Assembly: GCA_047947115.1 (NCBI GenBank)
Contig: CP170459.1
Location: 3,040,001 to 3,104,000, forward strand
Length of the DNA stretch: 64,000 nucleotides
Source: Verrucomicrobiota bacterium
GTDB taxonomy: Bacteria; Verrucomicrobiota; Verrucomicrobiia; Limisphaerales; AAA164-E04
Direction of reading: 5' to 3'
Below, piece after piece: positions 30,287-56,272 of this stretch; the first letter of the stretch is position 1, and every line of letters begins with the position of its first letter. The translations under genes were made by a program, and so were the position numbers. Under the pieces are notes generated by a model. The model was not told the DNA's origin, did no database searches, and was given only the letters and a program-made list of their open reading frames with translations.

Positions 30287-31825
30287 CTACAGGTCGCGAT
30301 CCTTGAGAATCACAAAACCGCGATGACCTTCGGCATTACGGTAAGAGACGACCATTCCCTTGCTGAGGTCGGCGTCGCGGTAAATTTCGGCAAAATCAAA
30401 GGGACTTCGGACCGGTTTGAAATTGACTTCGGTGATGATGGTTCCGGGCAGCAGGATTTGGTTGTCCGCCAGGCTTCCTTTTTCCACTTCCCACACCATC
30501 AGGCCCTCGGCGAGGTCGACCCCGAACATTTTGGCGCCGGATTCGTCGGCTTCCCTGAGCTTGAGCCCCAACGGGAGGTTTTGCGATTCCCGGGGTTCGT
30601 TGGCGGTGATGGCTGCGACGGGGGGGCGGGTCCATTCGCGCGGCTTGATGACCACCTGCAATCGTTCGTCGTTCCGTACCACGTCCAGTACGAGTGGTTT
30701 TCCAATACTTTGCGAACGAACCTGGTTCTTGAGTTGTTGAGCGCTGGCTACGGCTTTGCCGCCGACGGCAATGATGATGTCGGCTGGTCGCAAGGTTGAT
30801 TCGGCAGCTGCGCTTCCGGCTTGCACGGAGGAGACGATCACTCCCTGGGATACGGAGGTCACCAGATCGTTCAGTTCATAGTTTTCGATCAATGTTTGGA
30901 TGCCGATTCCCAGCAAAGCTCGTTTGAATGTGCCGGTTTCGATGAGTTGATGGCCGATTTCCATGGCCATGTTGATGGGGATGGCGAACCCGATGCCTGT
31001 GTTGAGTCCGCGAATCATGGTGTTGATGCCAATGGCTTCCCCCCGGATATTGACCAGCGGGCCACCTGAGTTGCCGGGATTGATGTCAGCGTCGGTTTGA
31101 ATGAAATCGTGATCCAGATTGCTGGACATGGCGACGGCGGATCGTCCCTTTGCGCTGACGTGACCGTAGGTGACGCTGTATTCGAGTTCGAATGGTGCTC
31201 CGATGGCGATGGCGAACTCGCCGACTTTAACTGCATCGGAGTCCCCGATCTTGATGGGGATCAAAAGAGATTCGGGTGCATCCACAAGTTGGATAACGGC
31301 GACATCGGATTGAGAATCGTAGCCCTTGACCAGTGCCTTGAAGATGCGGCCATTCATCAGGCGCACCCGGATCCGGCTGGCTGCTTCGATGACGTGGTAG
31401 TTGGTCAGGATGTAGCCTTCCTTGGAAAGTATCATGCCAGAACCTTTTCCATCGAAACGATCCCGAGGCCGCTCCGATTCGGAAGAGTCATTCCGCTCTT
31501 CCTCCTGGCCCTCGGGAGCGGGGCTTTGGTTGCGGAAAAACTCTTCCCATCGACGGCGCTGTTCCTCCGGCAAGTTGTCCAGTTCCGGATGGTTTTCAGG
31601 ACTCAGCAGGCCTGTTGCTGGTTTGACAGGATGAGCCACCTCCACCACGACCACGGATGGCGCCACCTTGTCGGCAACTTCAATAAACGCCTTGTTGAGC
31701 TTCTGTGCCCAACTTAATACATCAGACACCGACTCATCGGAACCGTCCGCATGCACGTGCCATGTCAGGGTGCTCCAGCAGATCCCGGTCAACAAAATGG
31801 TTTGTATGGTTATCCAGCGCTTCAT
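30287..31825 (-). CDS. HtrA/DegP-family serine protease with two PDZ domains
   Basis: Signal peptide; GSG, TNYHV, SDVAV, DADINPGNSGGPL; two PDZ-like regions. Confidence 0.95.
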   Translation of the reverse strand: MKRWITIQTILLTGICWSTLTWHVHADGSDESVSDVLSWAQKLNKAFIEVADKVAPSVVVVEVAHPVKPATGLLSPENHPELDNLPEEQRRRWEEFFRNQSPAPEGQEEERNDSSESERPRDRFDGKGSGMILSKEGYILTNYHVIEAASRIRVRLMNGRIFKALVKGYDSQSDVAVIQLVDAPESLLIPIKIGDSDAVKVGEFAIAIGAPFELEYSVTYGHVSAKGRSAVAMSSNLDHDFIQTDADINPGNSGGPLVNIRGEAIGINTMIRGLNTGIGFAIPINMAMEIGHQLIETGTFKRALLGIGIQTLIENYELNDLVTSVSQGVIVSSVQAGSAAAESTLRPADIIIAVGGKAVASAQQLKNQVRSQSIGKPLVLDVVRNDERLQVVIKPREWTRPPVAAITANEPRESQNLPLGLKLREADESGAKMFGVDLAEGLMVWEVEKGSLADNQILLPGTIITEVNFKPVRSPFDFAEIYRDADLSKGMVVSYRNAEGHRGFVILKDRDL

Positions 31826-49169: not shown

Positions 49170-49553
49170 TTAGGAAAGCCATTTGCGTAGCAGGTGGGCA
49201 AGTTCTTTGCGATTGATTTGCTGGTTGGCAATTTGAATCATTGCTTCGTGGAATTGCAACGTGATGTCTACAGATGTGTCTATACCATTTAGTTTCAGAA
49301 AAGTTAAACCTGCTGCGACGGCCGTTCTTTTATTCCCATCGAGGAAAGCTTGAGCTTGGGCAATATGGAAACAATAGGACGAGGCAATATCAAAAAGGTC
49401 TCCATTTTCGTAAAAATAGACTTGCAGTGATTGTGCGACAGCGCTTTAAAGTGCTCCTTCATCCCGAATGCCATCAGTGCCGCCAAAAAGGTCCAAGCCC
49501 TTTCTGTGAAAGAGAATTATTTGATCCAGTGTCAGAAACAATGGCGAACTCAT
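49170..49553 (-). pseudogene. Doc/Fic family toxin with one in-frame stop
   Basis: MSSPLFLTLDQII.FH...FGG.DGIRDEGAL*SA...IAQAQAFLDGNKRTA; TAA at 49448-49446 (codon 36); otherwise open for 127 codons; not in the ORF track. Confidence 0.88.
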
Positions 49554-50447: not shown

Positions 50448-52097
50448 ATGAGAAGTTTCAAGGCCATCCTGTTTCTTTTGCTGGGTGTGGTGCTGATTGT
50501 CGGCGCCATCCTCACTCCGGCGTATCTGCGCGCCGTTGATCGTGGCGTGTTGGAAACAGCCGGGGGTGAACCCGAGTTGGTCAGCGAGGCTTTTTCTTTG
50601 TTGAGTTTGGAAAAACCAGGTGTTGCCGAGTTGCTCTACCGCGCTGCGGTTGTCTCTCAATTGGCCGATTTGCCGAAAGTGGAAACGGCTCTTGGGAATG
50701 CTCGCGGTGAACAGGTCGCGGCCTTTCAACAAGGTGATACCGATCCTTTGATCCAAAACTGGATCCAGCTTCACCGCTTGCAGGGAACAAACGTGGTTTC
50801 TTGGTTTGTGTCCAGTGGGTTTCGTGGTTCTGTCGTGGAACATCTGGAGCAATCCAATCGCCCTGGCGTCCGTGAATTGATGCACAATCGATCCCTTCAG
50901 GCACTGGCGTTGTTTTTCCCGGTTTCAAGTGCTGGAGGGCAGGCTTTTGATTCGGCTATTTTGATGACAGGCCTGCTGTATCAAGAGGATCATCTGAATG
51001 CTTCATTTAGAAAAGAATTGGAAACCCTGGCTGCTGAAGCCAATCGGGGATTGGATACCCGTCCTTTGGAGTCGGTTTATCTGGATCTATTGTCGCTGTC
51101 CAAGCGGCTCAATTGGGGGCAGTTAACCGCCTTTATTCAAAAAGTGGACTCAGCTGCCACGCTTAGAACCCTGGTCCATCATGCTTCGCGGTCCGATGAG
51201 ATGCTGGCCACCGTCTTTTCCGGTGTTTGGTTTGCGGAATCAGGTTCTCAGGTGGCGACTTACCTGCGTCGCTATGCGGAGTCCGGTTCGAAGGACCTGC
51301 AAACTGCCGTTGGTTTCGGGCAAGGTTCGGTGCGGTATCTCATGGCGCGTCAGGAGCCGGTATACGTGAGTTCGATGCGTGAGAGTCTCAGAAGTTTAGG
51401 ACTGTTTCAGCCAGTTGCCCATGCGCTGACGGGTATGACGTTTCGATTGCCCATGATCGGGCTTTTAACCAAGTACCTGTTGTTTCTCTTCGGTAGTTTC
51501 TTTGTGTTTCGTTTGATTTATATGCTGAAACCTGGTCCCGATAAGGTGGAAGCTTCACTTCAGGTGGAGGGGATCGGTATTTTACGGCAGCAGATCATGG
51601 CCTTGGTGGCCTTGATCTTCCTGATCGCGTTTGGCGAACCTTTTCTTGCGCAGGATTCCAAAAAGATGGAAAATCCGATCAATTGGAGATTTCCCGTGGT
51701 CGAATCCGCTGTAACGGAGAAAATTGATAAAATTATGGATACAAAAATCACGCAAATTACCATTCTGGCACTGGTCGTTTTCTTTCTCGTCCAGGTGAGT
51801 ATTTATGCCTTGTGTCTGGTCAAGCTCAAGGAGATCAAAAAGCAGGAGGCAAAGAGCCGGCTCAAGCTCAGATTGCTCGACAACGAAGACAACATGTTCG
51901 ATGCCGGACTTTACGTAGGTTTGGGTGGTACCGTTCTGTCGCTGGTGATGCTGGCCTTGGGGATGGTGAATCCCGGTTTGATGTCCGCTTATGCATCGAC
52001 CTTGTTCGGGATCATCTTTGTTTCCGTGCTGAAGATCTTTCACGTGCGTCCCTATCGGCGCAAATTGATTGTTGAAAACGAGATGGAGTCCGCATGA
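50448..52097 (+). CDS. Polytopic membrane protein with C-terminal MotA/TolQ/ExbB-like helices
   Basis: N-terminal TM, about 300-aa soluble domain, five further TMs; GLGGTVLSL and SAYASTLFGI motifs. Confidence 0.7.
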   Translation: MRSFKAILFLLLGVVLIVGAILTPAYLRAVDRGVLETAGGEPELVSEAFSLLSLEKPGVAELLYRAAVVSQLADLPKVETALGNARGEQVAAFQQGDTDPLIQNWIQLHRLQGTNVVSWFVSSGFRGSVVEHLEQSNRPGVRELMHNRSLQALALFFPVSSAGGQAFDSAILMTGLLYQEDHLNASFRKELETLAAEANRGLDTRPLESVYLDLLSLSKRLNWGQLTAFIQKVDSAATLRTLVHHASRSDEMLATVFSGVWFAESGSQVATYLRRYAESGSKDLQTAVGFGQGSVRYLMARQEPVYVSSMRESLRSLGLFQPVAHALTGMTFRLPMIGLLTKYLLFLFGSFFVFRLIYMLKPGPDKVEASLQVEGIGILRQQIMALVALIFLIAFGEPFLAQDSKKMENPINWRFPVVESAVTEKIDKIMDTKITQITILALVVFFLVQVSIYALCLVKLKEIKKQEAKSRLKLRLLDNEDNMFDAGLYVGLGGTVLSLVMLALGMVNPGLMSAYASTLFGIIFVSVLKIFHVRPYRRKLIVENEMESA

Positions 52098-53668
52098 ATC
52101 GACCCTTGCTTATCATTATCTGCGACTTTTTGCTGATCAGCCTGCTCTCGTTGGCGCGGTTTGATCAACAACCGCCCATTGAATCCGAGCAGCCCGAGAT
52201 GACTGAGGCGGAGGAAGCACAGGGGGCGCAGGACATGATGGAGGTACTGCAACTGGCCTTGGAGCAGGAACGTCAGTCGAAAGAGGATCTGGCGCGTGAG
52301 TTGCAGGATATGCAGGACAATCTGCAGAACAAGGAAACCGCACTTCAGGAAAAGGACACTCGGATCGAGGGCATTCAGGAAAACCTGGAAGACGTCGAGC
52401 AACGTGCCGCTCAGTTACAGCGGGAACGGGAGATGTTGCAGCGTCAGTATGACGACACCCAGAAGAATGTGGCGTTTCTGCAGGAGCAATACGTCAATGT
52501 GAAACAGGAAGCCAGGCAGCTTCAGGAGGATTTGACCACGACTTCCGTAACGGCGACCGATTCCAGGGCGCGTCTGGAAACCATTGAATCCGAACTTCAG
52601 GTGCGGCGTCAGGAAGCCCAGCGCATGCAGGATAAGATGGATGAGCTGGAAAAGGAGCGTCAGGAAGCGGAAGAACAAAAATTTCAATTGGCGTTGGAGT
52701 TGAAGCAATCTCAGACCACCGAGATCATCATTCGCGAGCAATTTGATGCCGCCAAAGATGAGATCAAGACCGCCCGGGCCGATGTGGAATATTCTCGTGA
52801 TCAGGTGGATCTGGCTCGTAAGGAAGTGGATCTTGCCAGGGACGAGGTCATGATTGTGCGTCAGGAGAAGGAGCGTATTCAAGAACACGCCGAAGAATTG
52901 GCTGAAGGAGTCGATCAATTGGCGCAGAAATCGGAAGCCATTCGTCAGGACATCAAGGATAACACCCCTCTGGCCGCAAACACCATTTACAATGATTTCG
53001 TGGAGAATCGCATTCGCACGCGATTTTTCGCCGCGCGCAGCGGACTCTTTGGTCAGACCATTGACAAGGAATCTGAAACCAACAGTGTTTTGGTGTCCGA
53101 CGGGACCAATGTCTACGCTCTCTATCACGTGGAAGGCACTCCTTTTCAATTGTGGCAAGCCGAATCGGATTGGGAGCAACTGACGGGAGTGGTGAATCGT
53201 GGGCAGAAGGCTTACAGCATTGCTTTGATGTCCTTCATCAAAGCTGATCCGCGGTTGCTGGTTGTACCGGTGGGAGCGCAGCAGGCAGAGACCTTGGGTG
53301 CCAAGATTTACACCTTGGCGGCTGATCCATTCAAATTCCAGGAAGCGGTCCTGGTCGGGGCGCAGGAGGGTTACTACGGAGAAGCGGAATTCAAGCTGGA
53401 CCCGGCCAATCCCAATTATGTCAAAATGGAAAAGAGGGCCTTTCGCAAACTTGTTGGCAAATTTTCCCCGTCCAAAGGGGATCTGGTCTTCAGTAAGACG
53501 GGTGAGCTGTTGGGGATGATGGTGAACAATGACTACTGTGCAGTGTTGAGTTCCATCGAAACCACACAGAAATTTCGTTTTGGCATGAGCGTCCTTTCGG
53601 AAGGCACCGGACGGATCATGGCCCGGCAGGCTGTGTCTGTGAGTGCGCTACCCTTGCATTTTCAATAA
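52094..53668 (+). CDS. Single-pass protein with MotB/ExbD-like Asp-containing TM, coiled coil and degenerate trypsin-like domain
   Basis: IIICDFLLISLLSL; about 250-aa E/Q-rich coiled coil; ALYHV, DPRLLVV, PSKGDLVFSKTGELLGM. Confidence 0.65.
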   Translation: MNRPLLIIICDFLLISLLSLARFDQQPPIESEQPEMTEAEEAQGAQDMMEVLQLALEQERQSKEDLARELQDMQDNLQNKETALQEKDTRIEGIQENLEDVEQRAAQLQREREMLQRQYDDTQKNVAFLQEQYVNVKQEARQLQEDLTTTSVTATDSRARLETIESELQVRRQEAQRMQDKMDELEKERQEAEEQKFQLALELKQSQTTEIIIREQFDAAKDEIKTARADVEYSRDQVDLARKEVDLARDEVMIVRQEKERIQEHAEELAEGVDQLAQKSEAIRQDIKDNTPLAANTIYNDFVENRIRTRFFAARSGLFGQTIDKESETNSVLVSDGTNVYALYHVEGTPFQLWQAESDWEQLTGVVNRGQKAYSIALMSFIKADPRLLVVPVGAQQAETLGAKIYTLAADPFKFQEAVLVGAQEGYYGEAEFKLDPANPNYVKMEKRAFRKLVGKFSPSKGDLVFSKTGELLGMMVNNDYCAVLSSIETTQKFRFGMSVLSEGTGRIMARQAVSVSALPLHFQ

Positions 53669-55413: not shown

Positions 55414-56223
55414 CTAACCGATCAAGCGCAGCGCCGATTGTGGAATGGCGTTGGCTTGCGCGAGCATGGCTGTTCCGGATTGAACCAGGATGTTTTGACT
55501 TGCAAAATTCGCGCTTTCCTCGGCAACGTCCACATCCTTGATGCGGCTGTTTGCTGCGGAAATGTTGTCTTTCAACACGGCCAGCTGTGAACTGGTACTT
55601 TCCAGACGCGAGATGTTTGCTCCCACAGATGCACGATCCGTGGCCAGCTGATTGATGGCAGTTTTCACCGCCGTCAGAGCAGACGAAGCCCCGGCGGTTG
55701 TTCCGACCGCCAGTGAATTCAATGCGGTATAACTGCCTCCTGCGGCCAGATCGACGCCTGAAGCAGCAAACTTGGTTCCGTCACTGTCAATGGTCACATT
55801 CAGACCGGAACCATTGAACAAACTGACACCGTTGAAATCTTTTTTTGTGATATCAACGATATAGCTATCCAAGGTCTGGAATTCCTTGTCGTACAAACCG
55901 CGATCCGTATCGGATTTGGTTTCGTCCTGCGCCAGCATGGCCAGCTCACTCATGCGATCCAGCGCCTTGCCGACTTTGTTGAGGAAACCGTCCTGCGTCT
56001 GGGAGAACGAAACGGCGTTTCCGACATTGTCCTTTGCTGCCTGGATGCGGCTGACTTGGGCGTCGAACTTCAGCGATACCGCAGTACCTGCCGCATCGTC
56101 TGCGGGTGAGTTCAGCTTTGACCCTGAAGATAATCGTGCCAGTGATTTCTGCAATGATGTGGTCGATTCGCTGAGAATACGAGAGGCCATTGCAGCCGAT
56201 GGGTTGGTGTTGATGACTACCAT
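55414..56223 (-). CDS. fliC: Flagellin (short, about 269 aa)
   Basis: INTN, RLSSG..NSPADDAAG, FNG..L, RA.VGA..SRL, SRIKDVDVAEE, QSGTAMLAQAN. Confidence 0.97.
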   Translation of the reverse strand: MVVINTNPSAAMASRILSESTTSLQKSLARLSSGSKLNSPADDAAGTAVSLKFDAQVSRIQAAKDNVGNAVSFSQTQDGFLNKVGKALDRMSELAMLAQDETKSDTDRGLYDKEFQTLDSYIVDITKKDFNGVSLFNGSGLNVTIDSDGTKFAASGVDLAAGGSYTALNSLAVGTTAGASSALTAVKTAINQLATDRASVGANISRLESTSSQLAVLKDNISAANSRIKDVDVAEESANFASQNILVQSGTAMLAQANAIPQSALRLIG

Positions 56224-56227
56224 TTTT

Positions 56228-56272
56228 AACTCCTTCCTATGAGTTATCGTTTGCGCGACATCCATGCCGCGC
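56228..56272 (-). promoter_or_regulatory. Two GGA-loop hairpins in flagellin 5' UTR (CsrA-type sites)
   Basis: GCGCGGCAT-GGA-TGTCGCGC and AACTC-ATAGGAAG-GAGTT, the second overlapping the Shine-Dalgarno. Confidence 0.7.

Follow-up and report, generated by a model that had tools for sequence, protein, structure and literature searches.

The question raised by this locus is what two overlapping genes, here called A and B, encode in a 64,000-nucleotide stretch of a Verrucomicrobiota genome (the window; GCA_047947115.1, contig CP170459.1, positions 3,040,001 to 3,104,000). A first-pass annotation had proposed an ion-motor pair resembling MotA/MotB, ExbBD and TolQR, with a B subunit ending in a coiled coil and a pseudo-protease. 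We consider it fairly likely that A and B together make up a self-contained membrane motor driven by ions, of the 5:2 type (MotAB, ExbBD, ZorAB, GldLM), in which B is a periplasm-spanning shaft. To our knowledge, only a few families of 5:2 ion motors have been recognized, each driving a major function of the envelope, be it flagellar rotation, nutrient import, constriction of the outer membrane, gliding or phage defence. The two open reading frames (ORFs) and their coupling lie as the annotation had placed them:

50448..52097, + strand: gene A, 549 amino acids (aa), with six membrane helices predicted; candidate for a ring-forming subunit like MotA, ExbB or ZorA, from the ORF and a structure model
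52094..53668, + strand: gene B, 524 aa, with a membrane helix, a coiled coil and a predicted trypsin-fold head; candidate dimeric shaft subunit, from the ORF and a structure model
52094..52097, + strand: ATGA shared by the stop of A and the start of B; the 4-base overlap occurs in 77 of 97 loci

Neither protein passed a cut-off in Pfam, NCBIfam or PADLOC, apart from coiled-coil matches of B, and single-sequence searches of PDB gave no significant match for either. Database names of the members are 'hypothetical' or derived from the coiled coil.

Searches with A gave 119 relatives, and searches with the last 245 residues of B gave 795, the best 120 of which were used. At least 544 stretches of GTDB genomes encode a relative of A; from these we kept 80, all of the window's own group, and added 20 more distant loci picked from a search of the phylum. 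B was the next gene after A in 77 of the 80 loci and in all 20 distant ones (97 of 100 overall), and the remaining three stretches end 57–167 bases past A. Among 121 genomes of the order with completeness of 92% or more, profiles of the A core and of the B head flagged the identical 50 genomes. Of the 19 listed families that had at least two genomes when the source genome was set aside, 17 were uniform, with the pair in all of their genomes or in none. Pairwise identities of A cores and B heads rose together (Spearman 0.81 for 50 rows; pairs are not independent), and in a tree of 50 cores a branch with 100/99 support separated the window's group (31 rows) from the others. Phylum-wide, 115 of 301 genomes matched, one of them weakly and outside the core, while several families gave no match in any genome (for example, 0 of 23 in one of them). 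The source genome has a single copy, and no relative was found on the viral contigs and plasmids searched.

Comparison of 120 loci revealed no conserved third gene. One distant family has, in each of its eight loci, a gene for a 770–870 aa Ser/Thr kinase with an FGE-sulfatase domain closely behind B on the same strand. One genome has A split into frames of 252 and 303 aa with B intact behind them, by a frameshift or an assembly error. Four metatranscriptome runs, each from a different study, contained single contigs spanning the A-B junction, which demonstrates presence, not a transcript. Removing three near-duplicates from the 97 A-B pairs and adding the window gave a set of 95 rows; three of these are titled as other phyla and a fourth has an odd genus title, but titles are the submitters' own and may reflect mislabelling or transfer. 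We conclude that A and B are a real, phylum-specific two-gene module and an obligate unit.

Does A resemble the ring subunit of a motor? Hydropathy predicted six membrane helices (residues 4-22, 336-354, 383-401, 439-457, 489-507 and 510-528), not the four counted previously, and the structure model is all-helical (predicted local distance difference test score, pLDDT, 86; predicted template modelling score 0.79). The distribution of charges favours a topology in which a 313-residue domain is periplasmic, and the link 458-488 and the C-terminal end are cytoplasmic. The relevant features of both proteins are:

50514..51452, + strand: A residues 23-335, all-helical domain between helices 1 and 2, predicted periplasmic, absent from short forms
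51753..52094, + strand: A residues 436-549, conserved membrane core of three helices, with a predicted 28-residue cytoplasmic link
51930..51932, + strand: A Thr495 of the GxxGTV motif; of 95 rows, 93 have Thr here and 2 have Ser; putative equivalent of ExbB Thr148
51990..52001, + strand: A Tyr515 to Thr518 (A-Y-x-S-T-x-x-G); the Tyr is kept in all 95 rows and the Thr in 93; i/i+3 spacing as in CjMotA F186/T189
52103..52159, + strand: B residues 4-22, single membrane helix, conserved on all faces, with invariant Asp11 (codon 52124-52126)

The motifs pointed out in the annotation are present: GLGGTVLSL begins at 51918 with G491, and SAYASTLFGI contains Y515 and T518. Over 98 rows, the first three helices of A had a sequence entropy of 2.0–2.4 bits, compared with 0.92 and 0.61 for the last two, and Q449, D485, Y489, G491, Y515 and G521 were invariant in 95 loci. 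T495 and T518 were kept in 98–99% of 116 homologs, and Asp11 in 115 of the 115 homologs of B with a residue there, although these had been found through the far C-terminal domain. The observation thus goes beyond chance. The turn that joins the two helices is 9 residues from T495 and 7 from T518 in the model, so that both would sit at similar depth in the membrane.

The extra domain of about 300 aa claimed for A exists in the window but proved dispensable. In 17 of the 20 distant loci, A is a short protein of 169–213 aa consisting of one helix, a linker and the core, so that the core appears to be the essence of the family. Three distant genomes have a long A (560–580 aa) with the periplasmic domain, yet their cores group with the short forms in the tree; the domain may have been gained or lost more than once, or may be ancestral. 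In some relatives titled Opitutae or Opitutales, A is longer by 200 residues, at about 760 aa.

Neither the claim that A is a MotA/ExbB homolog nor that it forms a 5:2 ring could be established. A has no match to PF01618 above the cut-off and is not among the PF01618 matches of the source genome, which has five ordinary ExbB/TolQ genes. The family model matched only 2 of 95 A cores, with a best E value of 0.0034. Profile comparisons gave probabilities of 1–17%, Foldseek gave no match at E≤0.001, and the structural match between A and ZorA was within the range of unrelated three-helix bundles. These results would also be expected if the pair were a passive tether or spacer between the membranes, its motor-like motifs being convergent helix-packing glycines and a structural Asp. 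Such a tether could be built on a stalk whose length scales freely by heptads, and HtrA folds lacking the triad do act as scaffolds, for example PflC (from the part of PMC12222027 available). It is difficult, however, to explain in a passive strut an invariant buried Asp with near-invariant Thr and Tyr partners across three classes, and the genome already has a canonical tolQ-tolR-tolA-like run that includes a tolB-like gene and ends in a Pal-like gene. We regard the tether as improbable. In favour of a motor, A has, like the 5:2 motors, a conserved Thr or Ser in each of its last two helices, though with a spacing of 23 vs 33, and a downstream single-helix partner with an invariant membrane Asp.

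What would such a motor drive? Outside the membrane, B consists of two parts (model pLDDT, 82):

52208..52963, + strand: B residues 39-290, the coiled-coil stalk, which would be some 37 nm long when straight; 7-residue repeat at 52799-52840
52970..53665, + strand: B residues 293-524, predicted HtrA/trypsin-fold head; H345 (53126), R387 (53252), K461 (53474) and near-invariant G462-D463

The coiled coil is real, and its repeat DQVDLAR/KEVDLAR corresponds to residues 236-249. B varies from 440 to 650 aa across the family and its stalk from 27 to 46 nm, the length changing in heptad steps. The head is predicted to have the two-barrel trypsin fold, as anticipated, and the segments ALYHV, DPRLLVV and PSKGDLVFSKTGELLGM were all found in B. 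The last of these had been aligned with PGNSGGPLVNIRGEAIGI of the HtrA gene in the window (30287-31825, minus strand), with Lys on the catalytic Ser; hhalign also put K461 there, though with a probability of only 1% over 16 columns. By eye, R387 occupies the apparent place of the catalytic Asp. The head has PSKGD instead of GNSGG and lacks a His-Asp-Ser triad with a GxSG motif.

Alternatively, the head in Verrucomicrobiia might be an active protease with a remodelled site, His345/Asp385/Ser460, carried on the stalk and regulated or powered by A. These residues are conserved in 31, 31 and 30 of 31 Verrucomicrobiia rows, and 121 homologs keep them in 99, 100 and 96%, respectively. However, the ungapped register sets K/R461 on the nucleophile, R387 by eye takes the position of the Asp on its strand, and 19 distant rows keep the His in 3 and the Ser in none, though their heads are homologous to those of the window's class (97.6%). 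We therefore give little credence to an active protease; judged from its residues, the head is probably non-catalytic.

For the motor, we infer topology, complex, stoichiometry, ion flow, rotation and binding by the head as follows. The last two helices of five A subunits would ring a pore holding two B helices, with Asp11 facing Thr495 and Thr518 at mid-membrane. Alternate protonation of the two Asp11 residues would step the ring against the B dimer. The 28 cytoplasmic residues between the core helices are too few for a MotA-type gear, so output would leave through the parallel coiled coil of B; little of A is cytoplasmic and no transducer is linked, which likewise argues that work would be directed along the stalk to the head. 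A comparable route is proposed, in the available text of PMC12204202, for TolQ-like/transpore-helix vWA pairs. The head would hold on to a protein of the periplasm or outer membrane but not cleave it, and the 313-residue domain of A may be an optional collar or anchor.

The same parts could make an envelope sensor: the head, well out in the periplasm, would bind unfolded or exposed peptides, the stalk would relay this to the membrane, and the conserved cytoplasmic link of A would signal or a gated ion channel would open, with no sustained rotation. A sensor would be expected to have an output, but no linked sigma factor, kinase or effector gene was found in 80 loci of the window's group, and the frame after B was on the same strand in 46 and on the opposite strand in 44 of 90 loci. 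In addition, B has only 3–4 cytoplasmic residues, and the Asp, the Tyr and the two Thr are all retained, as in ion-coupled motors. We think a sensor unlikely.

Returning to the motor, a broader version is attractive, though we hold it only tentatively: an ancient, phylum-specific branch of 5:2 motors, with a minimal ring, a 27–46 nm shaft and a dead-HtrA grip, would power an outer-envelope process in Verrucomicrobiia, Kiritimatiellia and Lentisphaeria without a TonB/TolA-like transducer.

The surroundings of the pair gave further observations. The gene after B in the window is a cardiolipin synthase gene, as noted before, and a cls-like ORF was clustered with the pair in just 6 of 120 loci. 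The statement that no flagellar genes are adjacent was incorrect, since a flagellin gene lies 1.7 kb downstream on the opposite strand (55414-56265); this link is not conserved. The gene is one of two short flagellin genes, 90% identical, the other being at 1671611-1672438 of the contig. In this one-contig, 95.8% complete genome there was no match to FliG, the MotB plug, FlhA or a rod protein, so its flagellins are orphans or a flagellar cluster is missing; two genomes of the same genus do have FliG. Normal wall-building genes are present. FtsZ in the dcw cluster (contig 2856399-2857802) is very divergent (E = 3.7e-7) with an altered glycine-rich GTP motif, and a transposase-like frame (by eye) follows it; in the two other genomes of the genus E was 3e-8 to 7e-7, whereas elsewhere in the order it ranged from 4e-15 to 1e-46. 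The presence of FtsZ does not follow that of the pair. Upstream of a NUDIX gene, at about 49180-49405 of the window, contigs of three RNA runs skip 223–232 bases, probably a strain difference in relatives.

The module is probably undescribed and a new version of the 5:2 ion motors. The literature searched, including by five accessions, gave no description of the pair; subscription papers and bioRxiv supplements lay outside the search. In the portions of two survey supplements that were available (PMC12505986, PMC11890865) the accessions tried were absent, though one survey sampled Kiritimatiella glycovorans and Opitutus terrae. If the motor reading is true, a family that evades profiles and has a new output part would indicate an undescribed energised process, and a 169-aa A with a two-residue turn and almost no cytoplasmic domain would test how small a motor core can be. 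The family spans three classes of a phylum widespread in soil, sea and gut. The pair is directly testable because cultured carriers exist: Kiritimatiella glycovorans (AKJ63733/AKJ63734) and Tichowtungia aerotolerans (QHI69303/QHI69304).

How does the pair compare with known systems? Kiwa was considered because the KwaA model PDLC00210 matched 7 of 95 A cores (best 4.5e-7), but it found 1 A in 301 genomes, and the reciprocal test failed: compared with the A profile, one KwaA-like protein (a single sequence) scored 0.1 bit. According to the available text of PMC11785009, KwaA forms a tetramer and has a beta barrel in the cytoplasm. One ordinary defence locus has a KwaA-like gene with a probable KwaB neighbour, next to what by eye resembles a specificity gene of a restriction-modification system.

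From ZorA-ZorB (Zorya types I/II; PDB 8vvi, 8qyh) the pair differs in that A ends about 20 residues past its last helix without the ZorA cytoplasmic tail, B has no OmpA-like head, and ZorC/D/E are not among conserved neighbours. Neither PADLOC nor NCBIfam gave a Zor match, and the pair is all-or-none by family. The MotA-MotB stator is closer in some respects: short A forms have four helices like MotA, the C-D-F of B resembles the A-D-F of MotB, and Tyr515/Thr518 mirror CjMotA F186/T189 in spacing, residues that gate and bind MotB D22 (available text of bioRxiv 10.64898/2026.04.14.718414). However, A lacks the torque-generating cytoplasmic domain and B a plug or OmpA domain match. Among the 50 genomes with the pair, 30 have FliG, as do 35 of the 71 without it.

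HtrA/DegP and the S1C domains of PflC and RsgI9 differ from the B head, which has Arg and Lys/Arg at the apparent Asp and Ser positions, has no PDZ domain, and sits on a coiled coil behind an Asp-bearing helix. ExbB-ExbD and TolQ-TolR (PF01618 with ExbD/TolR) share with the pair the adjacent A-then-B genes, a core, of three predicted helices in A, whose last two helices carry GxxGTV and A-x-x-x-T-x-x-G motifs, and a partner with a single helix and a mid-membrane Asp. In those proteins ExbB T148/T181 and TolQ T145/T178 line the pore around Asp25/Asp23, as given in the part of PMC12905483 available. A differs in its Thr spacing, its short cytoplasmic link and the lack of a family match, and B in having a coiled coil and trypsin fold, not the small ExbD domain. 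B has no ExbD match, and no TonB/TolA gene was linked in 120 loci, although an unlinked transducer is possible.

GldM is a periplasm-spanning shaft. GldLM and the TolQ-like/transpore-helix vWA pairs are, like A and B, two-gene motors of the 5:2 type with the output domain on the B subunit itself (PMC12204202, available text), whereas the head of B is a predicted trypsin fold, not vWA or Ig-like, and A is missed by the TolQ model. The pair thus falls outside PF01618, ExbBD/TolQR, MotAB, Zorya and the S1 proteases, yet on the motor reading it would work like the motors of PF01618.
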